DNA of 64,000 nucleotides from an uncultured Gammaproteobacteria bacterium (GTDB lineage: Bacteria > Patescibacteriota > Microgenomatia > Daviesbacterales > UBA10151), in the NCBI GenBank assembly GCA_964390595.1, contig CAYMIA010000004.1, positions 4,023 to 68,022 on the forward strand. Reading direction: 5' to 3'. Below are positions 2,818-39,052 of this stretch, one piece after another (within the stretch, counting starts at the first letter, position 1; each line of letters opens with the position of its first letter). The notes under the pieces are model-generated. The model had not been told where the DNA came from. It did not search any database and was given only the letters and a program-made list of their open reading frames with translations. The translations under genes were made by a program, and so were the position numbers.

Positions 2818-3893
2818 TGAGGTTTGCAGTTTATTCACCTTATTTAGATACCTTTGGAGGTGGCGAAAAGTATCTTTTAACGATCGCTGAGGCTTTAACT
2901 AAATTGGGGGAGGTGGATCTGTTAATTGATACAAATTTAGCTAAAAAAAATCCTAGAAAATTAAAAGAGGTGTTGGCGGACCGTTTTGCGCTGGATCTTG
3001 ATCAAGTCAATTTAGTTAATGCGCCTTTGGGGGCAGGAACCAATTTAGTTTCCAGGGCACTTTTTTTAAAGAAGTATCAGCTGCTTTTTTCTTTCACAGA
3101 TGGGAGTATTTTTTATGCTAGCGCTAAAAAAAATATCCTTCATATTCAAACTCCGCTTGCTAATATTAATTCAAAAAATATTTGGGGGAAAATTAAACTG
3201 AACAGTTGGGATTTAGTAGTTTATAATTCCCAATTTACCAAAAAAAATTCACAGAAAAATTGGTCAATTCCTGGGGAGGTAGTTTACCCGCCAGTTGATG
3301 TGGAAAAAATTGCTCCTTTGGAAAAGAAGAACTATATTTTAAATGTAGGTAGATTTTTTGGTTATCTAAAGATCAAAAAACATGAGTTAATGATTGAAGT
3401 TTTTAAAGAGTTAATTGATACGGGAGAATTAAAAGGATGGGAGTTATATTTAGTGGGGGCGGCAACTGAGGGAGACTTAGAGTATGTTGATGAGTTGAAA
3501 AAAATGGCTAAAGGCTACCCTGTTATATTTGAGGTGAATGCTTCATATGAGCAGTTAGTGAAGCTTTATGGAGAATCAAAAATTTATTGGCATGCGATGG
3601 GCTATGGTGAAGATGATCCAACTAAGATGGAGCATTTTGGAATATCCACAGTTGAGGCGATGTCTGGTGGATGTGTGCCGGTAGTGATTAATAAAGGAGG
3701 GCAACCGGAAATTGTTGAGGATAGAGTATCTGGTTTTTTGTGGGACGAGACCAATCATTTAAAAAAACAAACTTTAACTCTAGTTAAAGACAAAGATATT
3801 TGGAGAAAGTTATCGGTAGAGGCCAGAGTCCGGTCTAGGCAGTTTGGAAAAGAGCATTTTGTTAAAAAAATCTGGGAGCTAGCCAGGAAATGA
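2817..3893 (+). CDS. family 4 glycosyltransferase (GT-B fold)
   Basis: The C-terminal EHFGISTVEAMSGGCVPVVINKGGQPEIVED segment carries the E-x7-E motif of retaining GT4 enzymes. The ATG overlaps the upstream stop (TGATG). Confidence 0.8.
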   Translation: MRFAVYSPYLDTFGGGEKYLLTIAEALTKLGEVDLLIDTNLAKKNPRKLKEVLADRFALDLDQVNLVNAPLGAGTNLVSRALFLKKYQLLFSFTDGSIFYASAKKNILHIQTPLANINSKNIWGKIKLNSWDLVVYNSQFTKKNSQKNWSIPGEVVYPPVDVEKIAPLEKKNYILNVGRFFGYLKIKKHELMIEVFKELIDTGELKGWELYLVGAATEGDLEYVDELKKMAKGYPVIFEVNASYEQLVKLYGESKIYWHAMGYGEDDPTKMEHFGISTVEAMSGGCVPVVINKGGQPEIVEDRVSGFLWDETNHLKKQTLTLVKDKDIWRKLSVEARVRSRQFGKEHFVKKIWELARK

Positions 3894-5572
3894 TTAAAAA
3901 AAATTGGTTAGTCTTGGGTTTAGTGGGAATTTTTATTGCCGCCTTTGTAGTGCGGGTCTACCAGCTAAACTTAGTGCCAATTGAACTTTTTGGGGATGAA
4001 ATTGATGTTGGTTTGCAAGCCAATTCAATTTTAAAGACTGGTAATGATTATTTGGGAAATACTTTTCCGGTCATGTTTCACTCATTTGCTGAGTATCGCT
4101 TGCCCCTTTTTATCTATAGCGATGTACCTTTTGTTGCTTTATTCGGGTTAAATGAATGGGGGGTCAGGTTCTCGGGAGTTTTTTGGGGGATGCTGGGCGT
4201 TTTGGGGATGTATCTGCTTTCAAATAAATTATTGGGGCGAAAAGTTGCTCTGATATCAACGGGTCTGCTAGCTTTTTCGGCTTGGCATATTCAGCTATCA
4301 AGACAAGGTGGAGTTGAGGCGATTATGTTGCTCACTTTTCTAATTTTTGGAGTTTGGAGTTTTTTAAAAGGATTGGATAAATTTAGTTGGCTTATTATCA
4401 GCGTAGTCATCTTTGGACTGTCTTTTTATACTTATGCAATAGCCGATGTTTTAACACCACTTTTTATACTGATGCTTTTAGGTTTGTACCCAAAAAAACT
4501 AAGAGCTTTTGGACTTAGAAAAGCGGCTGTTTTACTGGTTGTTTTGGTGGTAGTTCTTTTACCTTTTATTAATATTACTTTGCAACAGAAATCAACAAAC
4601 CGTTTCTCAAATATATCTATTCTTCATGACTCTAAAATAATACAAAAGGACATCGATGATAGAAGAAAACAAGAAAATCTTTCGTTTGGTTCAGCGGTTT
4701 GGCATAATAAAGTGCTGTCTTTCACAGATTCCTTTTTGCATAATTATTTAGAAAGTTTTTCAAGCGAATTTTTGATTATCAGGGGTGATCCCAATTTACG
4801 CCAATCAGTGGCTGACCGTGGGCAGCTTTATATATTTGAGGTCATAATTTTACTTTTGGGAGTGTATTTTTTTATTGTCAACAAAAAGTTCCCGAAGCTT
4901 TTAATCGGCTGGCTGATTTTGAGTCCAATTCCTGCCGGTTTAACAATTGGTGGGGGAAATCATGCTTCAAGGTTGCTACCAATGTTAATTCCACTCGAGA
5001 TTATAGCTGCTGTTGGGTTATCTTTTTTGTTTGAGCGCAAGAGACTTAAATCTTTTCAAGTTGTCATAGCAGTTGTGGCAGTTCTAGCTTTAATTAACAT
5101 CTCCAGTTACCTTTACCGGTATTACTATGATTGGTCAAAAGATAGTTGGAAATTTTGGCAGTATGGTTATAAGCAGGCGGTAACTTATATCAAGGCCCAT
5201 GACAGCGAATACTCAAAAATTTATTTTAATAACTCATATGAGCCGGCCTTGCCCCGTTTCCTTTTTTGGTATGGATATGATCCAGCTTTATTCCAGCAGC
5301 AGTTTAAAACAGACAAACCAACAGATAACTTAGCTGATGGATTTTCTGGTTTTTCTTTAGGGGATAAATATTTCTTCGGAACTATCACAGATGCAGACAG
5401 AAGAAGAGGTTTGTCAGTCTTGCTGAAACAAAATGAACTGTATATGGTCAGCAGTAAGGATGAAGCTTTTGAGCTAAATTGGGCAAATGAGCTTCCAGTA
5501 GGTTTGCATACTCTTAAAACTGTCTTTAGTCCTTTTAACGATCCTATTTTTTATATAGTAGCAAAGCGGTAG
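3890..5572 (+). CDS. ArnT/PMT-family (GT-C, GT39/GT83-like) polyprenyl-phosphate-sugar dependent membrane glycosyltransferase
   Basis: About 12 predicted TM helices. The N-terminal loop LFGDEIDVGLQANSILKTGNDYLGNTFPVMFHSFAEYRLPLFIY matches the conserved first periplasmic loop of the ArnT/PMT family. It is a paralog of the 11049, 12625 and 14331 genes. Confidence 0.7.
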   Translation: MIKKNWLVLGLVGIFIAAFVVRVYQLNLVPIELFGDEIDVGLQANSILKTGNDYLGNTFPVMFHSFAEYRLPLFIYSDVPFVALFGLNEWGVRFSGVFWGMLGVLGMYLLSNKLLGRKVALISTGLLAFSAWHIQLSRQGGVEAIMLLTFLIFGVWSFLKGLDKFSWLIISVVIFGLSFYTYAIADVLTPLFILMLLGLYPKKLRAFGLRKAAVLLVVLVVVLLPFINITLQQKSTNRFSNISILHDSKIIQKDIDDRRKQENLSFGSAVWHNKVLSFTDSFLHNYLESFSSEFLIIRGDPNLRQSVADRGQLYIFEVIILLLGVYFFIVNKKFPKLLIGWLILSPIPAGLTIGGGNHASRLLPMLIPLEIIAAVGLSFLFERKRLKSFQVVIAVVAVLALINISSYLYRYYYDWSKDSWKFWQYGYKQAVTYIKAHDSEYSKIYFNNSYEPALPRFLFWYGYDPALFQQQFKTDKPTDNLADGFSGFSLGDKYFFGTITDADRRRGLSVLLKQNELYMVSSKDEAFELNWANELPVGLHTLKTVFSPFNDPIFYIVAKR

Positions 5573-5581
5573 AATTGATCT

Positions 5582-6853
5582 ATGAGCAAAGCATTTATAT
5601 CAGTCCTAGTTATTGGAGTTTTAATCAGACTGCTATTTTCTTTCAGCACTTTTCATACAGACATCCGGGCATTCGATTTAGGAGGGCAGATTGTCTCCCG
5701 CGGTCACATCTGGGATTTATATGATTATTTGGCTACCCTAGATCCAAAAGATCCATTGGTTGAGGTCTATAAGTCGGATTTGTTTATCTATCCGCCAGCG
5801 ATTTATCTATTACATGGAATCTTTAGCTCAGTTTTTTCTTCGTTTTTGCCTGCTCCGCTACTGCGCCAATTTTTAGTGGATTATAGTTTGACCTTTGGAA
5901 ATATTTTAATTAACTTGCATCTGCTGTTTTTAAAGCTACCTTATTTAATATTTGATATTGGTTGTGCTTTTTTACTAGCCAAGTTATTTACTGAGAAAAA
6001 ACAACAATTGCAAGCATTTAGTTTGTGGATGTTTAATCCAGTGACTATTTACGCTAGTTTTATGATGGGTCAGTTTGATGTCATACCAACTTTTTTTGTA
6101 ATACTGTCTTTGGTAGTTTTAAAAAAAAGGTGGTTGTTTTTAAGACTCGAGCCACTTTTTGTTAGTGCAATTTGTTTGGGGGTGGGGGCAGCTTTTAAAA
6201 TTTATCCATTGTTTTTGCTGATACCTTTAGCGAGTCTAACTACAGGTTGGAAAAAAAGATTTCTGATCTTACTTTTGGGAAGCTTGCCTTATTTTTTAAG
6301 CGTTTTTCCGTATTTATTTTCAGCTGGATACAGGTCTTCGGCTTTAGTGGCGGGACAGATACTAAAAAGTTTTTACGCAGTCGTTCCGATTTCGGCTGGG
6401 GAGAGTATTATTCTGTTCATGGGAGCGATGATTTTTTTGTTTTTACTCTTTTTGATAAAGAATTTGCCTAGTTCGCCGTCTCTTGTGGAAATGGCCTGGC
6501 GGAGATTTTTTACTATTTTACTGATCTTCTTTATCTTTACCCACTTCCATCCACAATGGTTTGTGTGGATAACGCCTTTTTTGATCATTGACCTGATTGA
6601 AAGCCGGTTCAAACATTGGTTGCTTGTTGTGGGAAGTCTGACCAGCTTTATAGGGATGCTTTTTTTCTTTGACCCTTCTTTGACCGTAGGGCTTTTTAGC
6701 CCAATTTGGAGTCAGTTAGGGCAAATGCCTAGTATTTGGCAGATATTAGGTAGATCGGTTGATTACAATTTGGCGAGAAGTTTGTTGCAGACAGGTTTAG
6801 TTGGTTGTGCTCTTTATTATATTTACGGGGTGTTAACCAAAGAAAAAATCTGA
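5582..6853 (+). CDS. polytopic membrane protein, GT87/DUF2029-like putative mannosyltransferase
   Basis: A multi-TM protein. The N-terminal loop DLYDYLATLDPKDPLVEVYKSDLFIYPPAIYLLHGIF resembles the DUF2029/GT87 signature (D..Y..a......Y......YPP). Confidence 0.5.
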   Translation: MSKAFISVLVIGVLIRLLFSFSTFHTDIRAFDLGGQIVSRGHIWDLYDYLATLDPKDPLVEVYKSDLFIYPPAIYLLHGIFSSVFSSFLPAPLLRQFLVDYSLTFGNILINLHLLFLKLPYLIFDIGCAFLLAKLFTEKKQQLQAFSLWMFNPVTIYASFMMGQFDVIPTFFVILSLVVLKKRWLFLRLEPLFVSAICLGVGAAFKIYPLFLLIPLASLTTGWKKRFLILLLGSLPYFLSVFPYLFSAGYRSSALVAGQILKSFYAVVPISAGESIILFMGAMIFLFLLFLIKNLPSSPSLVEMAWRRFFTILLIFFIFTHFHPQWFVWITPFLIIDLIESRFKHWLLVVGSLTSFIGMLFFFDPSLTVGLFSPIWSQLGQMPSIWQILGRSVDYNLARSLLQTGLVGCALYYIYGVLTKEKI

Positions 6854-9393
6854 TGAAACTTTCAGTAATTACAGTCACCTTTAACAATGAAGAAACAATT
6901 AGTGATCACCTGAAGTCTTTGCAAAAAACTTTGCCAGACCAGAGTGAGATTATTATTGTAGATAATGCTTCGTCGGATAGCACAGTTGAGATAGTTAAAA
7001 GTTTTAAAAGAGTTGAGTTAGTTTCTAACTCAGAGAATCTAGGTTTTTCTAAGGCTAATAATCAAGCTGCTAGAGTGGCCCGGGGTGAATTTTTATTTTT
7101 TATTAATCCTGATGTTCAAATTGAAGGTTCAATTAAGACCATGCTGGATTATATTGAAAGTAACCCTGAGGTGGGGATTTTAGCGCCAAAATTAATTGAC
7201 TCAACAGGTAAAACTCAGGAGTCGGTCTCCAAATTCCCAACTCTTTGGGGAGCGGTTAAGGAGTACCTACTGGATCAAAAAAACTCATACGATGAGTACG
7301 CGCCAAAAACAGACCAGCCAGTTGAAGTAGAGGTAGTATACGGCGCAGCGATGCTGCTACCCGCTCAAGTTTTTAAAAAAATTGGTGGATTCAATCAGAA
7401 ATATTTTCTTTTTTATGAAGATATTGATCTTTGTAAAAAAGTTCACCAACTAAGCTTGAAAGTGATTTATTTTCCTTCAGTTGTATTTAAACATTGGAAA
7501 GGGGTCAGTATGAAAGAGGCGGAAAGAATGCCTGTTGGAATCCGAACACTGTCTTGGTTTATACCGCTTCGAGCCAGTGGGAGTAGGTACTATATGATTA
7601 AAAGTACTCAACTTTATCATGGAGTAACTGTGGCAACTCTGATCCGGATTTTGATGTATTTGAGAACAAAAATAGAGCGGGTGAAATTGAATACTTTGGC
7701 TTGTCTTTTAATTATTTTAATTCTTAGTTTTCCTGCGGTTGCTCATTTAACTAAACCAGGTTTTTTTTCAATGCATGATGACATTCAGGTGATGCGGCTC
7801 TTTGAGATGAATAAGTGTTTGACTGATGGCCAGATTCCCTGCCGTTGGGTACCAGATATGGGAGCGGGTTTTGGACACCCACTTTTCAACTACCATCCGG
7901 TTTTGGGTTATTATACTGGAGCTTTAATTCACAGCTTGGGTTTTTCATATATTGATAGTGTCAAATTACTTTTTGCCCTGACGCTTGTTTTATCCGGTTT
8001 TTTTATGTTTTTTCTTACCCGGGAGTTTTTTGGCAAGTTAGCTGGAGTGGTGGCGGCAGTCTTCTTTGTTTATGCGCCGTATCATGCAGTGGATACATAC
8101 GTCAGAGGGGCGTTAACTGAAGATTTGGGGATACTGTTTTTACCGGTTATTTTTTTCTTTCTGTATAAGTATATTAAAAAACAGCACTTGGGGTTTTTTC
8201 TCGGGAGTATCCTATCTTTGTCAGCGCTTTTGTTAGCTCATAATATTACGGCGCTAATTTTTGTGCCAATAGCTTTAGTTTGGTCTTTGGTCTGGTTGGT
8301 TTATGAGCATAAATTGAAACTGCTTTGGTCTTTGGCGATGATTTTTGGTCTTTCGTTAGGGCTCTCGGCTTTTTTTGTTTTACCCTCAATTTTAGAGTTA
8401 AACCAGATTAATGTTTTGCAAAACTCTGGTTACTATAATTTCCATGATCATTTTGTATCTTTGGGCCAGCTGTTTCTTAAGAGAGAATTTGGTTATGGTG
8501 GTTCGCAGATTGGAAATGATGATTCATTGTCTTTTCAGATCGGTTGGCCACATTGGTGGATTTTGCTTTCATCGATAATTTTAGCAGTCATTTTGGCGAT
8601 AAAAAAGAAAAAATACCCAGTTGAGGTGATTTTTCTGATTTTGCTGACTGTAGGGGCGATTTTTATGACTCATTCTAAGTCAGTGGTGGTTTGGAACTTC
8701 TTTTCTTTTTTGACTTTTGTGCAATTTCCTTGGCGGTTTTTGGGAATTGTAATTTTTGGCTGTGCTTTTTTAGCGGCTTTTTTTATCAGTTTTTGGAGCA
8801 GGGGGGTAAAGTTTTTACTGACAGTGACATTAATTTTAATGGCAATTGTATTAAATGGTTATTATTTTCAGCCAGAGAAACACTTTTATGACCTAACCGA
8901 TCAGCAGATGTTAAGTGGAGAGAACTTTAAAAGACAGTCAATGACAACTTTGCTAGATTATGTTCCCAAAGATGTTAAAAAAGTTCCAGATCAGTTAGCT
9001 CCCAGCCGGCCTTATTCGAGTTTTCCTGAAGTGGAAAGTGGTGAGATGCAAAAAGGTTCTAACACCTGGAATTTTTTAGTCCAAAATCAGACTTCAATGC
9101 CTATTCTATTGCACATTCCAGTGTTTAATTACCCGCGGTGGAGAGTTTTAATAGATGGTAAAGACACCGTTGTTAGCAGTCAAGACCAAACGGGTGTTAT
9201 TGATATAATGGTGCCGGCTGGACAACATTTTGTCTTAGGCACGCTGACTAATACTTTTTGGCGAAGTTTTGGGAACAACTTATCGGTTGTAACTTTACTA
9301 GCCTTGATCCTTTTGGTTTTGACCCGCACCAAAGCATTGGGTACAATAGATTTAAGTGCTTGGATTAAAAATGCTCGCAAATCAACTGTTTAA
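6853..9393 (+). CDS. bifunctional fusion: N-terminal GT2 glycosyltransferase + C-terminal GT-C-like polytopic membrane domain
   Basis: The most likely real start is the ATG at 6853, overlapping the upstream TGA; the ORF track extends it to 6805. Residues 1-~250 are a GT2 (MKLSVITVTFNNEETI...IIIVDNASSDST...NLGFSKANN...FYEDIDLCKK). They are followed by about 600 aa with more than 10 TM helices. The segment FSMHDDIQVMRLFEMNKCLTDGQIPCRWVPDMGAGFGHPLFNYHP is collinear with the N-terminus of the next gene, and both share a QFPWRFLG motif. Confidence 0.65.
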   Translation: MKLSVITVTFNNEETISDHLKSLQKTLPDQSEIIIVDNASSDSTVEIVKSFKRVELVSNSENLGFSKANNQAARVARGEFLFFINPDVQIEGSIKTMLDYIESNPEVGILAPKLIDSTGKTQESVSKFPTLWGAVKEYLLDQKNSYDEYAPKTDQPVEVEVVYGAAMLLPAQVFKKIGGFNQKYFLFYEDIDLCKKVHQLSLKVIYFPSVVFKHWKGVSMKEAERMPVGIRTLSWFIPLRASGSRYYMIKSTQLYHGVTVATLIRILMYLRTKIERVKLNTLACLLIILILSFPAVAHLTKPGFFSMHDDIQVMRLFEMNKCLTDGQIPCRWVPDMGAGFGHPLFNYHPVLGYYTGALIHSLGFSYIDSVKLLFALTLVLSGFFMFFLTREFFGKLAGVVAAVFFVYAPYHAVDTYVRGALTEDLGILFLPVIFFFLYKYIKKQHLGFFLGSILSLSALLLAHNITALIFVPIALVWSLVWLVYEHKLKLLWSLAMIFGLSLGLSAFFVLPSILELNQINVLQNSGYYNFHDHFVSLGQLFLKREFGYGGSQIGNDDSLSFQIGWPHWWILLSSIILAVILAIKKKKYPVEVIFLILLTVGAIFMTHSKSVVVWNFFSFLTFVQFPWRFLGIVIFGCAFLAAFFISFWSRGVKFLLTVTLILMAIVLNGYYFQPEKHFYDLTDQQMLSGENFKRQSMTTLLDYVPKDVKKVPDQLAPSRPYSSFPEVESGEMQKGSNTWNFLVQNQTSMPILLHIPVFNYPRWRVLIDGKDTVVSSQDQTGVIDIMVPAGQHFVLGTLTNTFWRSFGNNLSVVTLLALILLVLTRTKALGTIDLSAWIKNARKSTV

Positions 9394-11071
9394 GCGGAAA
9401 AATTTAGTAATTCTGATAGCCTTAGTAATTTTAATCATTCCGACTTTTTGGAGGATGCTTCGTCCAGGAATATTTTCCATGCAGGACTTTCACATCTTTC
9501 GGCTTTTTGAGTACCACAAATGTGTACTGGATTTGCAAATTCCTTGCCGGTTTAGTCCAGATGCTTCGTTTGAATATGGTCAGCCGATCTTTAATTTTTA
9601 TGGGCAGCTCAGTTATGCTTTTGGAGAGGTCTTTCTTTTTCTGGGAGCTTCCCACATTGATACTTTAAAAATTTTATTTGCCCTTTCCTTGATATTATCT
9701 GGCCTGTCAATGTTTCTGCTTTCAAAGCAGATGTGGAAGAGTAATTTGGCGGCACTGGTTAGCGCTTTGGTTTATGTTTACGCGCCTTACCGGGCTGTTG
9801 ATGTGTATGTTCGGGGAGCCTTGCCTGAAGCATTTGCTTTTATTTTCTTTCCTTTAATCATTTATTTTTTGAACCGCTTTATTTCGAATCAAAGACAGCG
9901 TGATTTGGTATTTTTTTCTTTAACTTTGGCTGGTTTGATTTTGACACATAACATCTCAGCGTTAATGTTTACCATCTTCCTAGTTATATGGGGAGTGTTT
10001 GTAATCGTTAAAAATCGAGCTTGGAAAGTAATTCCTAAGCTTTTAGTTTCCTGTCTGTTAATCCTTGGTTTGGTGAGCTTTTACATCCTGCCGGTAATTG
10101 GAGAAAGTTCTTATACATCTTTGAATGCGACCACTCAAGGTTATTTTCAATACATCAATCATTATGTCACTCTAAATCAGCTGCTGTTTTCACGGTTTTG
10201 GGGTTATGGAGGGTCAGGCTTTGGAGATCAGGATGGGTTGAGTTTGTCAGTTGGACACTTGCAGTGGATCCTGCCTATTATTGGAGTTTTATTGCTGCTG
10301 GTTTTGCGTAAATGGAGAGAATATAGTGGAGCTCTAGTTTTGTTTGGATTGGGTTGGTTGTTTTTATTTTTGACTCATAATAAATCAACGCCGATCTGGC
10401 AGCTTATTTCACCATTTCATTACATTCAGTTTCCTTGGCGGTTTTTAGGGATGGCTGTTTTTAGTTTCGCGCTTGGTAGTGGAGTGATCATTACATTGAT
10501 CCGCCAGAATTTCTGGCAGAAAATGGCAGTAATTATTATTTGTGTAATGGTCATTGGTTTGAATTTTGGATTTTTCTTTGAAGATCTGTGGTTTAAGATC
10601 GATGATAGGGCTCAATTTAGCGGTAAGAATTATGAACAATTAATTAGCGCCTCGATTGAAGATTACTGGCCAAGATATGGGGCACATGTACCAAGCAAAA
10701 TAGCGCCAAAAGATCCATTGGTGACAGAGGGGGTTGGTTCATCCAAACCAGTTAGTAAATCCACCAATCAGGCTAAATATAATGTGGATATTAGGTCAAA
10801 ACAGGCCTTAGTGACTATTCCGGTAGTTTATTTTCCAGGTTGGGTGGGGTTTGTTGACGGTAAACCCACTAGTATTTTTCCTGAACCAGATTTGGGAGCG
10901 ATCACTTTTCAAGTTCCTCAGGGATTTCATACTGTTTCAGTTAAATTTACTGACACTCCAGTTCGGGTTATTGGCAATCTAATCTCCTTTTTAACTATTT
11001 TTTTATTCTGCCTGATCTTTTTTAAATATGAACTGATTAAAAAATACTATGAAAAAGTTTTTAAGAGATAA
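9356..11071 (+). CDS. polytopic membrane protein, standalone paralog of the C-terminal membrane domain of the preceding GT2 fusion (GT-C-like)
   Basis: FSMQDFHIFRLFEYHKCVLDLQIPCRFSPDASFEYGQPIFNFYGQ and YIQFPWRFLGM match the upstream fusion protein. The C-terminal VYFPGWVGFVDGKP motif resembles the C-terminal beta-domain of YfhO/AftD-like proteins. The start could be 9356 or the ATG at 9371. Confidence 0.55.
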   Translation: MLGLKMLANQLFKRKNLVILIALVILIIPTFWRMLRPGIFSMQDFHIFRLFEYHKCVLDLQIPCRFSPDASFEYGQPIFNFYGQLSYAFGEVFLFLGASHIDTLKILFALSLILSGLSMFLLSKQMWKSNLAALVSALVYVYAPYRAVDVYVRGALPEAFAFIFFPLIIYFLNRFISNQRQRDLVFFSLTLAGLILTHNISALMFTIFLVIWGVFVIVKNRAWKVIPKLLVSCLLILGLVSFYILPVIGESSYTSLNATTQGYFQYINHYVTLNQLLFSRFWGYGGSGFGDQDGLSLSVGHLQWILPIIGVLLLLVLRKWREYSGALVLFGLGWLFLFLTHNKSTPIWQLISPFHYIQFPWRFLGMAVFSFALGSGVIITLIRQNFWQKMAVIIICVMVIGLNFGFFFEDLWFKIDDRAQFSGKNYEQLISASIEDYWPRYGAHVPSKIAPKDPLVTEGVGSSKPVSKSTNQAKYNVDIRSKQALVTIPVVYFPGWVGFVDGKPTSIFPEPDLGAITFQVPQGFHTVSVKFTDTPVRVIGNLISFLTIFLFCLIFFKYELIKKYYEKVFKR

Positions 11072-12659
11072 CCTAGCTTTAATTCTGATACTGATTTTGG
11101 GAGGGTTCTTGATATTCTGGGGGAGTGTGCCTCCCTCTCTGAATTGGGATGAGGCTTCCTTGGGGTATAATGCCTATTCAATTTTAAAAACTGGCCGGGA
11201 TGAATGGGGCAGGGTAATGCCGCTGAGCTTTGAAGCCTTTGGAGATTACAAGCTACCAGGTTATATCTATACTTTAGTTCACTTTGAAGCGATCTTTGGA
11301 TTGCATCCTTGGGTGGTGAGACTCCCATCACAGCTAGCTGGACTTATTTCAATTGGTTTACTGTATTTAATCATTTGGAAAATGACTAAAAATAAAAGAT
11401 GGGCAGTTGCAGCAGGTTTACTTCTGGCTATTTCCCCCTGGCATAGTTTAGTTTCTAGAGTGGCCTTAGAAGCTAATTTGGCTTTGAGTTTTTTTCTGGC
11501 TGCCTTATATTTTGGTATCTTAGGTTTTAAGAAAAGAAGGTTTTGGCTCTTTGCCAGTGTTTTGCTGGGACTCTCTTTATTTACCTATAATTCAGCCAGA
11601 CTTTTTATTCCACTTTTTTTAATTTCTGCTGTAATAATTTACTGGAAAAAGATAATTCAACTAAAACGGTCGCTGGTTTTACCAGGGTTGATACTTTTAC
11701 CTTTTTTTCTGGGGGCGGTTTATCTAGCTGTTTTTGTAGATAGCAGTTCTAGATACTACTGGATAAGTATTGTTGATCAAGGTGCAATTAATTATTTAAA
11801 TGAGTCGAGAGCTCAAAGCCAGTGGCCAGAGGCTGTGACTAAATTGGTTTTTAACAGATTTACCTATTTTGGCTTTAAAGCTGGGGGGAATTACTTGAGC
11901 TATTTTTCCCCGCAATATCTGTTTTTTTCAGGTGGATCAAACTATCAATTTTCAACGCCTGGTTATGGAGAACTTTATCTGATAGAGTTTCCTTTTTTGA
12001 TTTTTGGATTATTTCAGTTGTTAAAAAAAAGATACCGCTTCGGTATATTACTGGCTTGGTTTTTAATTGCTCCAATTTCAGCTTCAATAACTAGAGAAGC
12101 ACCACATGTTTTAAGATCACTGTTTTTTCTGGCTGTTTTACCAATCATCTCTGGTTTAGGGTTGTTGTCACTCATTGATCTATTTAAAAGAAACACATAT
12201 AGAAAAATAGCTGTTGGATTTGTATCTTTGTTTTTTTTGTTAAGCGCCGGTCTATATTTTTACAATTACTTTAAAGTTTATCCAGTGAAATATTCTCAGT
12301 CTTTTCAATATGGGATGAAACAAGTAGTTGAGTATGTTAATACCCATCCTGGGAAGGTCATTTATATATCTAAACATTCAGGTGAACCGCATATTTTTTA
12401 TCTTTTTTTCAGCCAATACGATCCAGCTAGATACCAAAACAATCCAACTTTGATTAGATACGCAAAGAGTAACTGGAGATGGGTGGATAGAATTGATAAT
12501 ATATATTTTGTGAATGATTGGGAAGTTAAGAATAAGTTAAAAAATCAAGTTGGGGTGATTTTAATCACCTCTCCTGGAAATTATCCTAATGGGTGGAAAG
12601 TCCAAGAATCAATTTATTACTTAGATGGTACCAAAGCTTTTGATGTTGTTTCGGCCTAA
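11049..12659 (+). CDS. ArnT/PMT-family GT-C membrane glycosyltransferase (paralog 2)
   Basis: NWDEASLGYNAYSILKTGRDEWGRVMPLSFEAFGDYKLPGYIYTLV is the conserved family loop. It is multi-TM and overlaps the upstream gene by 23 nt. Confidence 0.7.
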   Translation: MKKFLRDNLALILILILGGFLIFWGSVPPSLNWDEASLGYNAYSILKTGRDEWGRVMPLSFEAFGDYKLPGYIYTLVHFEAIFGLHPWVVRLPSQLAGLISIGLLYLIIWKMTKNKRWAVAAGLLLAISPWHSLVSRVALEANLALSFFLAALYFGILGFKKRRFWLFASVLLGLSLFTYNSARLFIPLFLISAVIIYWKKIIQLKRSLVLPGLILLPFFLGAVYLAVFVDSSSRYYWISIVDQGAINYLNESRAQSQWPEAVTKLVFNRFTYFGFKAGGNYLSYFSPQYLFFSGGSNYQFSTPGYGELYLIEFPFLIFGLFQLLKKRYRFGILLAWFLIAPISASITREAPHVLRSLFFLAVLPIISGLGLLSLIDLFKRNTYRKIAVGFVSLFFLLSAGLYFYNYFKVYPVKYSQSFQYGMKQVVEYVNTHPGKVIYISKHSGEPHIFYLFFSQYDPARYQNNPTLIRYAKSNWRWVDRIDNIYFVNDWEVKNKLKNQVGVILITSPGNYPNGWKVQESIYYLDGTKAFDVVSA

Positions 12660-14334
12660 TATAATTTTGAGCGGGCTGGTTTTAATCCTTTTACTAGGTG
12701 GACTGCTTAGAGCTTATCAGATTGGTAGTAATCCACCAGGTTTAACTTGGGATGAGGCCTCCTTTGGTTATAACGCCTATTCAATTTTAAAAACAGGTAA
12801 AGATGAATACGGCAATTTTTTGCCATTACAACTTAAATCTTTTGGTGACTATAAACCAGCAGTTTATACTTACCTCTCGATTCCATTTATAGCCACCTTA
12901 GGTTTAACTGAAACCGCTGTTAGGTTGCCAAATGTTATATTGGGGACTTTAACAATATTGATGGTTTATCTTTTGGTTAACTTACTTTTTAAGAATAAGT
13001 TTCTGGCTTTGGCCTGCGCCTTGATGATGGCGATTTCGCCTTACGCGATTCAATTTTCGCGTCCAGCTTATGAGGTTAGTACAGCTTTGTTTTTTAATAT
13101 TTCAGCGGCTTATTTTTTTGTCCGGGGGTTAAAAAAACCGCAATTTTTTATATTGTCGGCTTTATTTTTTGGATTATCACTTTTTACCTATCAAGCCTCC
13201 AGGCTGTTTGTGCCATTGATAGTTTTGGCTTTAGTTATTACCAATATAAAAGAACTGAAGCTATCCAAGTTTTTGGTGGCATCTGGGGTAACGCTGGCAG
13301 TTTTTATGGCTTTGGCTGGTTTGCTGATTATACTTTTCCATCAGTCTAATCGAATTGCTGCAACCAGCTATTTTAAATATGCTGATAACAGGGCTACCAT
13401 TTCCCTGGCTAAACAAGAGAGCCCGAATGGTTATTCGAATTTAGGATTTCAGATCTTGCATGGAGATTGGTTTTACAACATTAGGGGGCTTGGGGAGCAT
13501 TATTTGATCTATTTTTCCCCATCAATTTTATTTGTTAATGGTGATTATGATCTGAGACACAAAGTTCCAGACTTGGGAGTTTTGTATTATATATCAGCAG
13601 TATTGATACCCCTTGGACTGGTTTTGGCCTTCAAAAAAAAGGAATCAAAGATTATTCTACTCTGGCTTTTGATTGCTCCACTGCCTGCAGTGCTTTCCAG
13701 GGATTTAATTAATTTTCAGCGGGCTTTTAATTTAAGTTTACCTCTATCTGTGCTGGAGGGGTTTGGGTTATATTTTCTGGTCAAGTACCTACTAACTTTA
13801 CCAAAAGTTAAATCCAGTATCCTTCTTTCTATAGTTAGTTTGGTAATTTTGGGAAATTTTTTAATCTATCTGGACCGGTATTTTGTTCATGGTCCAAAGG
13901 AACTTTCCAGAGGTTGGTTGTATGGTTACAAAGAAGTAATGTTGGGTTTAGCGCCTGAGAAGTACCAGCAAGTTATTATGACAGATTTTTATAAACAACC
14001 ATATATTTTCTATCTATTTTATAAACAGTATCCGCCTGAAAAGTTCCAAAAACAGGCAGTTTTGGATCAGCCAACTGCAGATGTAGGAGAGATTAAAAGG
14101 ATTGATAATATTGAGTTTAGACATGTTTATTTTCCTGATGATAGAAATCTGAAGAATACCTTGCTGATTGGGATAGAAGATGAGTTGCCAGATAATGATG
14201 TTAAGGGAGCGCAGGGTAGTCAGTTAATTGGTCAAATTAACTTTTTAGATCAGACACCAGCTTTTAGAATAGTGGAGAATGAATCTTCACGAGCAGGTAC
14301 TCGCAGCTTTTCTTCTGGAGAAAAAAATAGATGA
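12625..14334 (+). CDS. ArnT/PMT-family GT-C membrane glycosyltransferase (paralog 3)
   Basis: LTWDEASFGYNAYSILKTGKDEYGNFLPLQLKSFGDYKPAVYTYL. It is multi-TM. The alternative start at ATG 12643 is also possible. Confidence 0.7.
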   Translation: MVPKLLMLFRPNIILSGLVLILLLGGLLRAYQIGSNPPGLTWDEASFGYNAYSILKTGKDEYGNFLPLQLKSFGDYKPAVYTYLSIPFIATLGLTETAVRLPNVILGTLTILMVYLLVNLLFKNKFLALACALMMAISPYAIQFSRPAYEVSTALFFNISAAYFFVRGLKKPQFFILSALFFGLSLFTYQASRLFVPLIVLALVITNIKELKLSKFLVASGVTLAVFMALAGLLIILFHQSNRIAATSYFKYADNRATISLAKQESPNGYSNLGFQILHGDWFYNIRGLGEHYLIYFSPSILFVNGDYDLRHKVPDLGVLYYISAVLIPLGLVLAFKKKESKIILLWLLIAPLPAVLSRDLINFQRAFNLSLPLSVLEGFGLYFLVKYLLTLPKVKSSILLSIVSLVILGNFLIYLDRYFVHGPKELSRGWLYGYKEVMLGLAPEKYQQVIMTDFYKQPYIFYLFYKQYPPEKFQKQAVLDQPTADVGEIKRIDNIEFRHVYFPDDRNLKNTLLIGIEDELPDNDVKGAQGSQLIGQINFLDQTPAFRIVENESSRAGTRSFSSGEKNR

Positions 14335-15962
14335 AATTATTCTGGCAAAAATATTGGATCAGTTTGATATTGGTGGCCATTTTGGGGTTGGGACTTTTTT
14401 TGCGGACAGCTTGGTTAAGTAGCTTCCCAGCTGGGTTTAACGCTGATGAAGCGGCAATTGGCTACAATGCTTACTCTTTACTCCAAACAGGTAAGGATGA
14501 ATATGGAACAGCGTTTCCACTGGCCTTTAAATCATTCGGGGATTTTAAACCGGGACTTTATTTTTATTTTGTCTTACCTTTTGTGGCTATTTTTGGATTA
14601 ACTGAGTTAGCAGTGCGTTTACCCTCAGCTCTTTTTGGGGTGGGGACTATCTTTTTGATTTTTCTGCTTTCAAATGAGGTCTTTAAAGACCGGAGAATTG
14701 GACTAATCAGTGCTTTTTTGCTTTCAATTACTCCTTGGCATATTCATTTTAGTAGAGGTGGATGGGAGACTAATGTTGCCACTTTTTTTATAACTTTAGG
14801 CGTTTTTCTTTTTATAAAGGGCTTGCGGTCAAATTGGGTGATGTTTTGGAGTCTATTTTCTTTTCTGATCTCGATGTATCTTTACCAATCACCCCGGTTG
14901 GTAGTGCCAGTTTTGGTTTTAGGTTTAGGATTATTTTTTAGGAAGCAGCTTAAAGTTAACTTTAAAGCCAAAATTAAATATCTAATTGTCCTTTTGGTTT
15001 TAACGGTTCCACTAGTTTTACAATTTACCTCTGGTGGTGGAAGCTCACGCTTTTCAGGTCTGTCTTTTTTGTCTGATGCTGGGCCTAAGTCCCGGGTGGA
15101 GCAGCTGCGGGGTGAGCATGATAGCAAATTAATTGCCACTCTTTTACATAATAAAGTGACAGGTTATGGAACTAATTTTTTAGGACATTATTTGGATCAT
15201 TTTAGTTTAGATTTCTTATTTATTAATGGGGATCCATTGATCCGCAATAAAGTTCCAGAGGTTGGTCAGTTTTATCTAATTGAGGCTTTGTTTTTGGTGG
15301 TTGGATTTTGGGGGTTGGTTAAACAGAAAATTAAATTAGGGCTTTTATTAATTCTTTGGATATTGATCTCGCCGCTTGCCTCTTCACTGACTTACCAAAC
15401 GCCAAGTGCGCTTAGAGCATTAAGTATGGTTGTGCCGTTAACTATGATCATGGGGTTTGGATTGTGGAGCTTGCTAACCTCGGTTAAAAAATTACCTTGG
15501 CGGTTTTTAGCAGTTGGTTTAATTGGAGTAATTTTAATTTTTGAAACAGCCCACTACCTGGATGCTTATTTTATTCATTACCCAAAACGATACCCGCTAT
15601 CATGGGAGTATGGATTTAATCAAATGGTTGATAAGTTGCAACAATATCAGAGTCAATATAAAAGAGTGGTTATAACTGACCGTTATGATCAACCCTACAT
15701 TCTGGTTTTGTTTTATGAAAAATATGACCCTAAAAAATATCAGCCCCAAGCTAAGTTAACTGACCGGGACAAATTTAATTTTGGGACTGTCAGGAGTTTT
15801 GATAAATATGAATTTCACAGTATTACTACCAAAGAGTTTAAGGGAGCTAAGGACACACTTTTTATTGGAACAGAAAGTGAGATAGAAGACAAGGCCCGGA
15901 TATTTGATAGAATTAAATTTCCAAACGGAGAAGACGTCTTTGTATTTGCCAAGAGTGATTAA
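14331..15962 (+). CDS. ArnT/PMT-family GT-C membrane glycosyltransferase (paralog 4)
   Basis: FNADEAAIGYNAYSLLQTGKDEYGTAFPLAFKSFGDFKPGLYFY. It is multi-TM and the start overlaps the upstream stop (ATGA). Confidence 0.7.
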   Translation: MKLFWQKYWISLILVAILGLGLFLRTAWLSSFPAGFNADEAAIGYNAYSLLQTGKDEYGTAFPLAFKSFGDFKPGLYFYFVLPFVAIFGLTELAVRLPSALFGVGTIFLIFLLSNEVFKDRRIGLISAFLLSITPWHIHFSRGGWETNVATFFITLGVFLFIKGLRSNWVMFWSLFSFLISMYLYQSPRLVVPVLVLGLGLFFRKQLKVNFKAKIKYLIVLLVLTVPLVLQFTSGGGSSRFSGLSFLSDAGPKSRVEQLRGEHDSKLIATLLHNKVTGYGTNFLGHYLDHFSLDFLFINGDPLIRNKVPEVGQFYLIEALFLVVGFWGLVKQKIKLGLLLILWILISPLASSLTYQTPSALRALSMVVPLTMIMGFGLWSLLTSVKKLPWRFLAVGLIGVILIFETAHYLDAYFIHYPKRYPLSWEYGFNQMVDKLQQYQSQYKRVVITDRYDQPYILVLFYEKYDPKKYQPQAKLTDRDKFNFGTVRSFDKYEFHSITTKEFKGAKDTLFIGTESEIEDKARIFDRIKFPNGEDVFVFAKSD

Positions 15963-15965
15963 ATT

Positions 15966-16826
15966 ATGTCAATAAAAATATCGGCAGCAATAGCGACATT
16001 TAATGAAGAAGATAATATTAGAGATTGTTTAAATTCAATCAAAGAAATTGTCGATGAGATCGTCATTGTTGACGGGACTTCAACTGACAGAACAGTTGAG
16101 ATAGCTAAAGAATTTGGTGCCAAAGTTATTATCAAAGATAACCCAGCTAATTTTCATATTAATAAACAGCGATCGTTTGAGGAGTGTAGTGGCGAGTGGA
16201 TTTTGTATCTGGATGCAGATGAGCGGGTTTCTAAAAAATTGGCTAATGAGATAGTCAGTGTAACTCAGATGGATCAAGAAGAACTGGCCAAATATCAAAT
16301 GAAACTACCACACAGAAAACTTTTTTTAAGACATCAGAAGTTAGTAGAGCGACGTGATGGAAATGTCGGAACAGGGGAGGGAGATTATGTAGCTTTTTTC
16401 TTTCCTAGGTTGAACTTTTTTTTGGGGAAATATTTGAGGTATGGTGGAGTTTATCCTGATGGGGTGATTAGGTTCTTTAAAAGAGGCCGAGCCTATTTGC
16501 CAGCCAAAGATGTGCATGAGCAGATGGTGGTTGAGGGGAAAGTCGGTTGGCTTGAACATGACCTACTTCATATTGATTCTCCGACCTTTGGCCGCTATTT
16601 AAAGAGAAATACCCGTTATGTCCAACTTTTAGCGGACCAATTAGCTGATGAAAAAGTTGGAAAAAATTTCCAACAGTTGGTAAATTATATGCTCATCAAA
16701 CCAATACTTTGGTTTTTAATGACTCAAATCCGTCACAAAGGGATTCTGGATGGAATCCCTGGGATTATCTTTTCTTTTTTCTCTGCTCTTAGATTTCCTA
16801 GAGCATATATCTTATACTTAAGATAA
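15966..16826 (+). CDS. family 2 glycosyltransferase
   Basis: ISAAIATFNEEDNIRDCLNSIKEIVDEIVIVDGTSTDRT and a YLDADE motif. It is a paralog of the 241 and 2011 genes. Confidence 0.8.
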   Translation: MSIKISAAIATFNEEDNIRDCLNSIKEIVDEIVIVDGTSTDRTVEIAKEFGAKVIIKDNPANFHINKQRSFEECSGEWILYLDADERVSKKLANEIVSVTQMDQEELAKYQMKLPHRKLFLRHQKLVERRDGNVGTGEGDYVAFFFPRLNFFLGKYLRYGGVYPDGVIRFFKRGRAYLPAKDVHEQMVVEGKVGWLEHDLLHIDSPTFGRYLKRNTRYVQLLADQLADEKVGKNFQQLVNYMLIKPILWFLMTQIRHKGILDGIPGIIFSFFSALRFPRAYILYLR

Positions 16827-16830
16827 GTTT

Positions 16831-17871
16831 ATGAAAATAGGAATTTATTCTCCAGTAGAGCCTTTGGGCCATAGTGGCAGAGGAATTGGTAATTATATTG
16901 TCAATTTAATAGAGGCACTCTCTAGGCGGCATGATTTAGAGGTAGTTGAGTTTAAAAATTCAGCAAAATTACCCGAAGTTGATTTAATTCATTATCCTTT
17001 TTTTGATTTTTTTGACCGGACGCTACCCTTGATAAAGTCTCTTCCGACTGTGGTGACCATTCATGATGTGACACCACTTTTATTTCCTGAACATTATCCG
17101 CCAGGAATCCGGGGTAGAATTAACTTGGCATTTCAAAAGCAATCTTTGAAAAGTGTTGGTGCAATTATAACTGATTCAAAGGTCTCTAAAAAGGATATTA
17201 CATCAGTTTTAAAAGTTTCCGAAGAAAAGATCTTCGTGACTTATTTATCGGCCGCCAAAGATTTTAAAGTGATTGAGGATAAAAAAGTTTTAACAGACAT
17301 AAAAACCAAATATAACTTACCTGAGAAATTTGGACTTTTTATAGGTAATGTCAACTGGAATAAGAATATCCTTAATCTGGCAAGAGCTTGTGCGCAGGCC
17401 CACTTGCCGCTGGTTTTAGTGGGTAAGAGCTTTGAGCAAAGAGATAACTTAAAACACCCGGAGATGAGAAGTTTTACCCAATTTTTGAAGGAATTTAAGG
17501 GTAACCCTTTGGTTTTGATGCTAGGCTTTGTGCCAACAGCAGATTTGGTGGGGATTTTGAATTTAGCCTCAGTTTTTTTATTTCCATCTTTTTATGAAGG
17601 ATTTGGGATGCCTGTTCTGGAGGCGCAAGCCTGTAGGGTACCCGTTATTACTTCAAACAGAGCCTCATTACCTGAGGTGGCAGGGGGAGGAGCTTTGTTT
17701 GTTGATCCATATTCAGTTGAGGAGATCGCCCGGATGATAACCAAGCTGCTATCAGATCAAGCACTGCAAAAAGATTTGATCAAAAAAGGAGTGGAAAATT
17801 TTCATAAGTTTTCTTGGGAGAAAACAGCTGAGGAGACTGTCTTGGCCTACCGGTTTGTACTTAGGATTTGA
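16831..17871 (+). CDS. family 4 glycosyltransferase
   Basis: The C-terminal FPSFYEGFGMPVLEAQACRVPVITSNRASLPEV is the GT4 EX7E region. Confidence 0.75.
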   Translation: MKIGIYSPVEPLGHSGRGIGNYIVNLIEALSRRHDLEVVEFKNSAKLPEVDLIHYPFFDFFDRTLPLIKSLPTVVTIHDVTPLLFPEHYPPGIRGRINLAFQKQSLKSVGAIITDSKVSKKDITSVLKVSEEKIFVTYLSAAKDFKVIEDKKVLTDIKTKYNLPEKFGLFIGNVNWNKNILNLARACAQAHLPLVLVGKSFEQRDNLKHPEMRSFTQFLKEFKGNPLVLMLGFVPTADLVGILNLASVFLFPSFYEGFGMPVLEAQACRVPVITSNRASLPEVAGGGALFVDPYSVEEIARMITKLLSDQALQKDLIKKGVENFHKFSWEKTAEETVLAYRFVLRI

Positions 17872-17928: not shown

Positions 17929-19182
17929 ATGAAAAAAAAGATTCAATTACTGCTAAATAATCAGCTGCTTGGTAACAGCGTCTTAATGATAATTGGTTTT
18001 AACGGTGGGAATGCGATCAATTATCTATACCACTTGATTATGGCTAGAATTTTAGGGCCGGCTCATTACGGAGAGTTAGCCACCTTAATAAATGTGATTG
18101 GGATTGTTAGCATGATACCAGCTTCGCTGTCTTTGGTAATTGTTAAGTTTGTATCGTCGGCTAAGTCGGCTGATCAGATTAGCGGGTTACTTAATTGGTT
18201 CGTCAAAAAAACTTATATCGCATCCGGTGTTGTTTCATTGGTTTTTTTAATTCTTAGTCCAGTTTTAGCTAAGTTTTTAAATATTGATAATGTATCACTG
18301 CTAGTGATTCTAGCTTTGACGTTTTTATTTATTTTACCAGCGCTTTTTTATCGTTCAGTTTTGCAGGGACTTTTAAAATTTAAAGAATATGTTATCTCGG
18401 TTTTATCTGAGAATACAATTAAATTAGTCTTTGGAATAGGGTTTGTTTTAGCTGGTTTTTCTGTTTTTGGAGCGATGATTGGATTTGTAGCTGCCACTTG
18501 TTTGGGGTTTTTTCTGAGCAGACACTTTATTAGGATACACCGTAGCCGGGATGTTCAGCCACCCAATTTAGGGAGTCTCTTTAGCTACTCGTTGCCAGTG
18601 CTGATTCAGTCAGTGGCGGTTACATCTTTACTATCAGTTGATGTCATTTTAGTGAAACATTTTTTTGATTCTTACCAAACCGGAATTTATGCAGCTTTTT
18701 CATCTTTAGGAAAGATTATCTTTTATGGTGCCGGACCGATCAGCGCGGTGATGTTTCCTCTGGCTTCGGCCAAAGCTGCCCGCGGCGAAAGTTCGTCAAG
18801 GGTATTTTTATATAGCGTTGGCGCAACTGCGCTACTTGTTTTTGGGGTGGTGTTGATTTATCTATTCTTTCCGAGACTCGCTATTAATATTCCTTTTGGG
18901 AGCTCATATCTGCAGTATTCACAACTGCTAGTTTATTTTGGTTTGTTTATGGGAATGTTTACAATTGGCTATTTATTTACCAACTACTTTTTATCAATCT
19001 CTAAGACTAAAGCGATTGTTTTACCAGTAATAGCTGCTCTAGTTCAGGTAGTTGGGATATTTATTTTTCATAAAAGTTTGCAGTCGGTCATATTAGTTTC
19101 ACTTTTTGCTGGGTTTTTACTGCTTGTTTCATCAGTTGGCTATTTCTTATATCTCTTGCAAACTGACAAAAAAATAGGCTAA
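17929..19182 (+). CDS. Wzx-like oligosaccharide flippase (MOP/polysaccharide biosynthesis protein family)
   Basis: About 12 TM helices at 417 aa. The N-terminal LGNSVLMIIGFNGGNAINYLYHLIMARILGPAHYGELATL matches the Polysacc_synt N-terminal signature. Confidence 0.7.
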   Translation: MKKKIQLLLNNQLLGNSVLMIIGFNGGNAINYLYHLIMARILGPAHYGELATLINVIGIVSMIPASLSLVIVKFVSSAKSADQISGLLNWFVKKTYIASGVVSLVFLILSPVLAKFLNIDNVSLLVILALTFLFILPALFYRSVLQGLLKFKEYVISVLSENTIKLVFGIGFVLAGFSVFGAMIGFVAATCLGFFLSRHFIRIHRSRDVQPPNLGSLFSYSLPVLIQSVAVTSLLSVDVILVKHFFDSYQTGIYAAFSSLGKIIFYGAGPISAVMFPLASAKAARGESSSRVFLYSVGATALLVFGVVLIYLFFPRLAINIPFGSSYLQYSQLLVYFGLFMGMFTIGYLFTNYFLSISKTKAIVLPVIAALVQVVGIFIFHKSLQSVILVSLFAGFLLLVSSVGYFLYLLQTDKKIG

Positions 19183-24150: not shown

Positions 24151-24178
24151 TTGCAAAACTTTAATTGATTTGTATAAT
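24151..24178 (+). promoter_or_regulatory. candidate sigma70-like promoter in divergent intergenic region (TTGCAA-16nt-TATAAT)
   Basis: TTGCAA at 24151-24156, a 16-nt spacer, then TATAAT at 24173-24178. It sits immediately upstream of the ATG at 24189, implying a very short leader or a leaderless transcript. Confidence 0.35.
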
Positions 24179-24188
24179 CCAGTTAAGC

Positions 24189-38971: not shown

Positions 38972-39052
38972 AAGTTACTTTCTATTGATAATCTGAGGTC
39001 AATTATATATTGTATGTATGAATTAGCCGGGAGTCTCGGGCTTTTAGGTAAT

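Follow-up and report, generated by a model that had tools for sequence, protein, structure and literature searches.

An ancient, ordered trio of ArnT/PMT_2-like GT-C glycosyltransferase genes in Microgenomates-type bacteria

The mycobacterial embCAB operon encodes three GT-C paralogs side by side, which take their sugar from a polyprenyl-phosphate carrier and serve different acceptor sites on the same envelope glycoconjugate. In Rhizobium, three clustered ArnT-like paralogs, rgtA/B/C, add galacturonic acid at different positions of the lipopolysaccharide (LPS) and occur together with the GT2 gene rgtE; the title of Brown et al. 2012, cited in PMC9393093, names the rgtA-E genes. Paralogs can also work together, as in the Pmt1-Pmt2 heterodimer (PMC12331936). 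In described three-component extracytoplasmic systems a GT2 enzyme synthesises the polyprenyl-phosphate sugar, which a flippase then brings across the membrane for transfer by a GT-C enzyme on the outside (PMC11127046, PMC5836110, PMC8035078). Here we describe a tandem array of three GT-C paralogs, B, C and D, in a 64-kb stretch of contig CAYMIA010000004.1 (assembly GCA_964390595.1), hereafter called the window, to which all coordinates refer. Judging by the relatives of its proteins, its host is a Microgenomates-type bacterium of the Candidate Phyla Radiation (CPR) related to Daviesbacteria. The three enzymes probably carry out three non-redundant extracytoplasmic transfers from polyprenyl-phosphate sugars on one envelope glycoconjugate.

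The three consecutive genes coincided in position and length with those described in an earlier note on this DNA (about 540-570 amino acids; open reading frames of 536, 569 and 543), and the fourth family member which that note had placed at 3890-5572, here called A, was recovered as well:

3890..5572, + strand: paralog A, 560 amino acids; PMT_2 match of 47.8 bits; Asp-Glu pair at 3995-4000
11049..12659, + strand: paralog B, GT-C (PMT_2) glycosyltransferase of 536 amino acids; PMT_2 47.1 bits
11130-11270: loop 1 of B, with the Asp-Glu pair at 11148-11153
12625..14334, + strand: paralog C, GT-C glycosyltransferase of 569 amino acids; PMT_2 44.9 bits, PMT 41.7 bits; C-terminal alpha/beta domain at residues ~430-555
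12733-12873: loop 1 of C, with the pair Asp43-Glu44 at 12751-12756
14331..15962, + strand: paralog D, GT-C glycosyltransferase of 543 amino acids; PMT_2 39.2 bits
14427-14567: loop 1 of D, with the Asp-Glu pair at 14445-14450

The open reading frames of B, C and D were intact and co-directional, with overlaps of 35 nucleotides between B and C and of 4 nucleotides (ATGA) between C and D. By BLASTP, B and C were 35% identical, C and D 36% and B and D 31% (516-532 alignment columns, E 3e-64 to 8e-85), a similarity far above chance, and A was ~31% identical to each of the three (E 1e-49 to 6e-56). The 64 invariant columns of a four-way alignment of A-D were scattered from end to end, indicating homology over the full length. 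Loop 1 was the best conserved region among B, C and D (55-66% identity, compared with ~30% for the membrane core and 22-34% for the C-terminal domain); the paralogs are thus divergent outside loop 1, as had been noted, but homologous throughout. The loop motif read 'NWDEASLGYNAYSILKTGRDEWG...FEAFGDYKL' in B, 'TWDEASFGYNAYSILKTGKDEYG...LKSFGDYKP' in C and 'NADEAAIGYNAYSLLQTGKDEYG...FKSFGDFKP' in D. A regular expression proposed earlier for this motif described the whole of B, the first half of C and the second half of D, and failed for the remaining halves. Between the paralog genes there was no DNA-level repeat longer than 53 nucleotides (at 72%), which argues against a recent amplification, in agreement with the earlier suggestion. 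Scans for promoters and terminators gave nothing beyond shuffled sequence.

All four paralogs exceeded the Pfam gathering threshold for PMT_2 (PF13231, 26.1 bits) with 39-48 bits. For PMT (PF02366, threshold 22.7 bits) C passed with 41.7 bits, D and B stayed below the threshold (21.2 and 17.6 bits) and A had no match, and a Pfam search for the PMT_4TMC module (PF16192) gave no match in A-D at E <= 0.01. The AlphaFold2 model of C (pLDDT 89.3, pTM 0.89) has residues 11-30 as the first transmembrane helix (TM1) and 42-57 as the first juxtamembrane helix, with a poorly predicted outer loop at ~240-290 and, at the C-terminus in place of PMT_4TMC, a soluble alpha/beta domain; the predicted architecture is ArnT-like. 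When this model was compared with the PDB by Foldseek, the top 43 matches were all GT-C enzymes (STT3/PglB/AglB, ArnT, Pmt4, ALG9, DPY19, AftD, Emb, AftA/B and PIG-U). The best TM-scores were those to ArnT (0.54-0.55), and Pmt1/2 aligned over ~265 columns only. At the sequence level, a single-sequence phmmer search of the PDB with C gave no match; ArnT was reached by the family profile alone (5ezm, E 5e-6, about one third of the protein), which also found STT3 (3e-3). E. coli ArnT aligned weakly to the B/C/D profile (48%) and better to the family of a short window protein, E (87%), for which the top structural match was likewise a GT-C enzyme. With the PMT_2 matches of A-D, these comparisons place the proteins within the GT-C fold. 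'ArnT/PMT_2-like GT-C' is the correct level of naming and the public 'GT39' a generic label; the earlier wording 'ArnT/PMT-like' was well chosen, because the PMT_4TMC module of true PMT and the RYA motif of true ArnT are both absent.

The PMT match of C raises the question of a protein acceptor. B, C and D could be PMT-like O-glycosyltransferases acting on Ser/Thr residues of proteins that are secreted or displayed at the surface (for example S-layer proteins, pilins or disordered regions rich in Ser/Thr), each paralog serving a distinct substrate class or all of them forming obligate hetero-oligomers like yeast Pmt1-Pmt2. Besides the score of C and the weak matches of B and D, Pmt4 and Pmt1/2 are found among the structural matches of the C model, PMTs are known to act as homo- or heterodimers (PMC12331936), and proteins are known targets of bacterial GT-C/GT39-type enzymes (PMC6151902, PMC12041528). 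We nevertheless regard this serious alternative as rather unlikely. The PMT_4TMC module, which together with PF02366 defines PMT (PMC12331936), is missing, ArnT was the better match by TM-score as well as the top sequence-profile match, and the C-terminal soluble domain is an ArnT-type feature. Moreover, an acceptor protein was not evident within the window. A glycan or glycolipid appears to be the more likely acceptor for the three proposed transfers.

GT-C enzymes carry their DE/DxD motif shortly after TM1, within the first extracytoplasmic loop and ahead of the first juxtamembrane helix (PMC12331936, PMC6801728). In the model of C, D43-E44 stood at the start of helix 42-57, directly after TM1. 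The Asp-Glu pair was invariant in A-D and in a 40-sequence alignment; among 362 family proteins (81 related loci and the window) the Asp was present in 359 and the Glu in 360, with conservation in every orthogroup, and R100, R146, R243 and R366 (C numbering) were nearly invariant in the same set. The acidic residues on which the description of loop 1 as catalytic depended are thus in place. Because they are retained in all orthogroups, none of the paralogs appears to be a dead copy, and non-catalytic paralogs were dismissed as an explanation on this ground.

ArnT (GT83) carries two loop-1 motifs, RYA and YFEKP, the latter with an essential Lys (PMC5377068). Loop 1 of E. coli ArnT reads 'PDETRYAEISREMLASGDW...YFEKP' and shares with B/C/D a common grammar of DE, [ST]G 14-15 residues on and then K-P, the distance from DE to K-P being 30 residues in ArnT and 34 here. 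RYA is absent (B/C/D 'DEAS(L/F)GYNAYS' and 'DEAAIGYNAYS' versus 'DETRYAEIS' in E. coli ArnT). The counterpart of YFEKP is 'FGD(Y/F)KP', which the profile aligned with 'KPPF' of C. metallidurans ArnT. The equivalent Lys was found in 63/65 proteins of the C group and 64/66 of the D group; in the B group this position was K in 40 proteins and P in 22, and in the A group it was R. The B orthogroup also fell into two subtypes at the columns K77 and E150 of C, with K/E in 40 and P/Q in 22 proteins; one of these otherwise conserved columns is the equivalent of the ArnT Lys. From the sequences, this split suggests a sub-functionalised B lineage.

It could be argued that the trio encodes true ArnT or Rgt-type enzymes which put charged sugars on lipid A or another membrane lipid, since ArnT came out on top by profile and TM-score, the loop grammar DE...[ST]G...KP has its counterpart in E. 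coli ArnT and the Rhizobium rgtA/B/C genes are a general precedent. Against this, RYA is absent and YFEKP is kept only in part (FGDYKP, with K variable in the B group and R in A) (PMC5377068). Protein family scans of the 64-kb window turned up no lipid A genes. CPR bacteria are not known to have an outer membrane or to make LPS. With RYA missing in a lineage not known for LPS, a lipid A-type acceptor is very unlikely, and this explanation stands far behind that of a protein acceptor.

The distribution of the family was followed in one genome per GTDB species, where at least 563 relatives were found; matches with 10 kb on either side gave 81 related loci. Those of the best 80 relatives, out of at least 563, that had informative titles were almost all Microgenomates-type CPR bacteria (Davies-, Woese-, Shapiro-, Gottesman-, Levy-, Collier-, Blackburn- and Chisholmbacteria). 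The closest relatives of C were 47-55% identical, and the few that were named were called 'glycosyltransferase family 39 protein [Candidatus Daviesbacteria]' or, by JGI, '4-amino-4-deoxy-L-arabinose transferase-like glycosyltransferase'. Every one of the 81 loci carried at least two family genes in tandem, and the largest tandem run was 2 genes in 17 loci, 3 in 37, 4 in 15, 5 in 9, 6 in 2 and 7 in 2. Three family genes in tandem are thus the usual state in this lineage. The earlier view of the locus as unusual for bacteria needs qualification: within this lineage such arrays are the rule and no peculiarity of a single locus, and tandem GT-C paralogs are known elsewhere.

Each family gene was assigned to the orthogroup of the most similar window paralog, and an assignment was called clear at a bit-score margin of at least 40. 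The contiguous order B-C-D was present at 51/81 loci, in 42 of them with every margin at or above 40 bits; several of the remaining loci ended at contig ends. Orthologs of A with such a margin numbered 32 and were usually located upstream of the trio. Mean identity within orthogroups across genomes was 40.0% for B, 37.5% for C, 44.5% for D, the best conserved group, and 38.8% for A. Identity between paralogs was 27-33%, equal for pairs from the same locus and from different loci, and since paralogs sharing a locus were no closer than others there was no sign of concerted evolution. For 216/220 proteins the nearest neighbour belonged to the same group at another locus. Orthologs were thus closer to each other than paralogs, so that the duplications predate the divergence of these lineages. 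By these comparisons the duplications are ancient, as had been proposed, and the order of the trio is conserved over much of the Microgenomates. Recent amplification, gene conversion and an assembly artefact were rejected as sources of the array, there being no long DNA repeats and the same order at 51 independent loci. It is also highly improbable that the copies are redundant, reflect strain-level surface variation or include one or two non-catalytic partners: copy number does range from 2 to 7 across loci and surface-glycan loci are frequently variable, but the B-C-D order is kept at 51/81 species-level loci, concerted evolution is absent, the catalytic residues are present in every orthogroup and no recent DNA-level duplication is visible.

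Many relatives that bear Microgenomates-type arrays were titled 'uncultured Gammaproteobacteria/Pseudomonadales bacterium', among them two chromosome-level records of 0.6 and 0.8 Mb; taxonomy of this kind is apparently a placeholder or wrong. Another locus, titled 'Clostridia bacterium' (L023), had the same seven-gene array as a Microgenomates locus (L007) and is probably mislabelled or mis-binned.

The regions in which the paralogs of the trio differ might indicate how they are specialised. The ratio of within-orthogroup to between-paralog identity among B/C/D was 1.19 in the membrane core (residues 84-240, C numbering), 1.26 in loop 1, 1.34 in the membrane region 321-430, 1.50 in the C-terminal domain and 1.77 in the outer loop EL4 (241-320). 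In the literature EL4 is described as the element by which GT-C enzymes mainly recognise their acceptor (PMC12331936), and in the GT136 system the acceptor glycan is bound by the C-terminal domain (PMC11127046). This pattern would fit a shared donor chemistry combined with paralog-specific acceptors. The diversification postulated in the earlier note accordingly has its strongest signal in EL4 and the C-terminal domain.

Downstream of the trio, several genes were candidates for donor supply and further glycan synthesis:

15966..16826, + strand: GT2 glycosyltransferase, 286 amino acids, directly downstream of D
16831..17871, + strand: GT4 glycosyltransferase, 346 amino acids; NCBIfam GT4-type matches
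17929..19182, + strand: Wzx-like MOP-family membrane protein, candidate flippase; Pfam Polysacc_synt 77.5 bits
19192..20004, + strand: GT2, candidate polyprenyl-phosphate-sugar synthase, 270 amino acids; DPMS/GtrB/ArnC-like
24165..25580, + strand: methyltransferase-GT2 (DPMS/AglJ-like) fusion, second candidate polyprenyl-phosphate-sugar synthase

A GT2 gene like 15966-16826 adjoined D downstream at 39/47 loci with room for it, and a GT4 gene like 16831-17871 was next in line at 29/44 loci. GT2 genes like 19192-20004 were found within 6 kb downstream of the trio at 25/37 loci, with a median identity of 54.6%. The best PDB sequence matches of 19192-20004 were DPMS (5mlz, E 1e-15), GtrB (sll0501, 5e-9) and ArnC (8e-7), all of them polyprenyl-phosphate glycosyltransferases. 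The N-terminal ~100 residues of 15966-16826, and only these, were closest in the PDB to GmaR and SunS, which are protein/peptide glycosyltransferases, a likeness that again speaks for a protein acceptor. This gene is one of four paralogous GT2 genes in the window (241-1146, 2011-2817, 15966-16826 and 48998-49768), all with an N-terminal domain similar to SunS/GmaR and a hydrophobic tail at the C-terminus.

The fusion protein 24165-25580 matched the AglJ model with 111.8 bits, a Dol-P-hexose transferase model with 57 bits and DPMS 5mlz with E 5e-11. Such a fusion of an S-adenosylmethionine-dependent methyltransferase to a GT2 domain occurred at 1/81 related loci. By its domains, it hints at a methylated sugar or lipid-linked donor. 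In a Daviesbacteria relative (L002, 563-6679) the trio was preceded by genes for a GHMP kinase, two SIS-domain proteins, a nucleotidyltransferase, a HAD-type phosphatase and an epimerase, a combination reminiscent of nucleotide-heptose synthesis that might point to the sugars involved.

The comparisons show the fold and family of B, C and D, the retention of their catalytic residues, how old the duplications are, and that gene order and neighbours are conserved; the donor class, the membrane side, the division of labour and the nature of the acceptor we infer as follows. The GT2 enzyme 19192-20004 would probably make a polyprenyl-monophosphate-sugar donor at the cytoplasmic face, and the Wzx-like protein 17929-19182 may be what carries it to the other side. 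B, C and D, presumably all catalytically competent, would then each transfer a sugar to an acceptor on the outer face of the cytoplasmic membrane, with the Asp-Glu pair of loop 1 as the presumed catalytic acid/base centre. The three steps may differ in position, linkage or acceptor stage on one glycoconjugate, with the co-conserved GT2 and GT4 enzymes assembling its cytoplasmic part. Three different, non-redundant transfers are most likely because ancient paralogs have been kept in a fixed order.

Several observations weigh against this. A Wzx-like gene was present within 6 kb of the trio at 17/37 loci only, and donor synthase and flippase were both assigned by similarity alone. The GmaR/SunS-like GT2 gene after D and the passing Pfam PMT score of C count in favour of a protein acceptor. 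Loci of Gottesman-, Levy- and Chisholmbacteria carry arrays whose genes did not sort clearly into B, C and D orthologs. Finally, the orthogroups were defined by similarity to the paralogs of the window itself and are in part circular, although neither positional conservation nor the nearest-neighbour test depends on that definition.

Beyond the trio and A, further GT-C-type genes were detected in the window:

5582..6853, + strand: X, polytopic protein of 423 amino acids, probable GT-C without a Pfam match; hhalign against the E family 92.7%, E 4e-7
6805..9393, + strand: Y, GT2 domain fused to a PTPS_related-type (GT-C-like) membrane domain
9356..11071, + strand: Z, PTPS_related membrane protein of 571 amino acids, AftD-like GT-C group; PF10131 45 bits
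27480..29234, - strand: M, probable GT-C-type; hhalign against the B/C/D profile 81%
31214..33229, - strand: N, AftD-like GT-C of 671 amino acids; 37%-identical relatives pass GT-C_AftD (PF11847)
39014..42316, + strand: O, 1100 amino acids, homologous to N from about residue 438 on
44939..47668, + strand: P, 909 amino acids, homologous to N and Z
51627..52769, + strand: E, minimal GT-C of 380 amino acids without a C-terminal soluble domain; PPLGK motif
51822-51827: site of E with the invariant Asp66 (IPDE)

Together with A, B, C and D, the genes X, Y and Z form an unbroken series of seven genes for polytopic membrane proteins, in the order A, X, Y, Z, B, C, D (3890-15962), from two GT-C subfamilies. 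Y matched Glycos_transf_2 with 82 bits, and PTPS_related (25.9 bits) and PMT_2 (22.3 bits) slightly below their cutoffs; its C-terminal part was 35% identical to the neighbouring Z, and its true start is probably the ATG near 6853. N, O and P had no Pfam match of their own and were mutually homologous (hhalign 99%; O-N 99.5%, E 3.5e-23, 537 columns), and via the relatives of N they belong to the AftD-type GT-C family (PF11847); Z and N aligned with 98.7%. In total the window contains 10 well supported GT-C-type genes and two probable ones (X and M), so that the five counted earlier were too few, the additional ones being Y, Z, N, O and P and probably X and M. Alongside these lie about 20 genes of the GT2/GT4 type, genes for two Wzx-like proteins and one gene each for a Wzy_C-like protein and an initiating sugar transferase. 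All 64 kb of the window form a glycosylation island with 10-12 GT-C-type genes, a very large share of a genome that likely measures only ~1 Mb (genome size in Microgenomates is ~0.6-1.3 Mb by the chromosome-scale records among the relatives).

The short protein E had no significant Pfam, NCBIfam or BLAST match itself. Its family profile aligned to that of the B/C/D family by hhalign (97.3%, E 2e-11, 267 columns), and Foldseek with its AlphaFold2 model (pLDDT 94.7) found ArnT 5f15 as the best match (E 1.8e-5, TMq 0.58), followed by Pmt4 and STT3, the top 32 PDB matches all being GT-C enzymes. 'IPDE' and 'PPLGK' of E aligned with 'PDET' and 'FEKP' of ArnT. Because both profile and model matched GT-C enzymes, E is a real GT-C lacking the C-terminal soluble domain, and its earlier description as a minimal PMT-like protein was justified. 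Its relatives were 24-48% identical and those with names came from CPR bacteria and archaea, several of them being called GT39 or matching PMT_2/PMT (P0150 and P0151 with 33.7 and 29.0 bits for PMT_2). The family is common to CPR bacteria and archaea, with source names including Pacearchaeota and Bathyarchaeia, which suggests either that it was transferred among lineages with small cells or that both groups have it from an ancient common stock.

A more far-reaching interpretation is that the trio and the nearby GT-C genes form a lineage-defining machine of the Microgenomates, which would build a major envelope polymer largely outside the membrane from polyprenyl-phosphate sugars, the three paralogs possibly acting as an obligate hetero-oligomer. 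Mycobacterial arabinan building would be the model for polymer assembly outside the membrane. We regard this as a speculative idea, somewhat less probable even than a protein acceptor. If true, extracytoplasmic glycan assembly would be a core trait, costly for a small genome, in ultra-small and probably host-dependent bacteria.

The more modest interpretation of three non-redundant transfers already has consequences. The fold, the chemistry class, tandem GT-C paralogs as such and the public label 'glycosyltransferase family 39' are already known. What is new is the ordered B-C-D trio with its GT2, GT4 and DPMS-like GT2 genes, conserved over many Microgenomates lineages; in the literature on CPR, Patescibacteria or Microgenomates with GT39, PMT_2 or mannosyltransferase we did not find such arrays described. 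The CPR cell envelope is almost uncharacterised, and the trio offers well-defined, conserved targets for heterologous expression. It might further serve as a marker operon for a glycoconjugate that is shown to hosts or partners, while it does not reveal a new mechanism.

Among known systems, ArnT (GT83; C. metallidurans 5EZM/5F15, E. coli b2257) resembles the trio in several respects: the GT-C fold with the top TM-scores and profile match, the Asp-Glu pair early in loop 1 with K-P about 30 residues on, protein size and the C-terminal soluble domain. The ArnT operon also encodes a GT2 polyprenyl-phosphate-sugar synthase, ArnC, just as a DPMS-like GT2 gene is found near the trio. ArnT differs by the presence of RYA and by a YFEKP spacing that is 4 residues shorter (PMC5377068). 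Sequence similarity to it is marginal (profile E 5e-6 over one third of the protein), and a single arnT gene compares with three to seven paralogs in a host lineage that is not known for lipid A. PMT (GT39; yeast Pmt1-Pmt2, M. tuberculosis PMT) has in common with the trio the DE motif before the first juxtamembrane helix, the Pfam PMT match of C and the name 'glycosyltransferase family 39 protein' that NCBI gives to relatives. Unlike PMT, the trio is devoid of PMT_4TMC and of a MIR domain and has a C-terminal soluble domain instead, and the structural overlap with Pmt1/2 is limited to ~265 columns.

The embCAB and rgtA/B/C genes are like the trio in being three adjacent GT-C paralogs, but they belong to other GT-C subfamilies. 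Emb proteins, which PDB titles describe as an EmbA-EmbB heterodimer and an EmbC homodimer, are longer (~1,050-1,090 amino acids), contain carbohydrate-binding domains and were weaker structural matches (E 1e-3 to 1e-1), and the acceptors of the Emb and Rgt enzymes, arabinan and the LPS core, are not expected in CPR bacteria. The GtrABC, CsbB/GtcA/YfhO, GacI/K/L and GT136 systems follow the same logic of GT2, flippase and GT-C enzyme for which the present locus has candidates within 9 kb, the flippase here being a weakly assigned, Wzx-like Polysacc_synt candidate. Those systems each have one GT-C enzyme, whereas the Microgenomates loci have three to seven in series.

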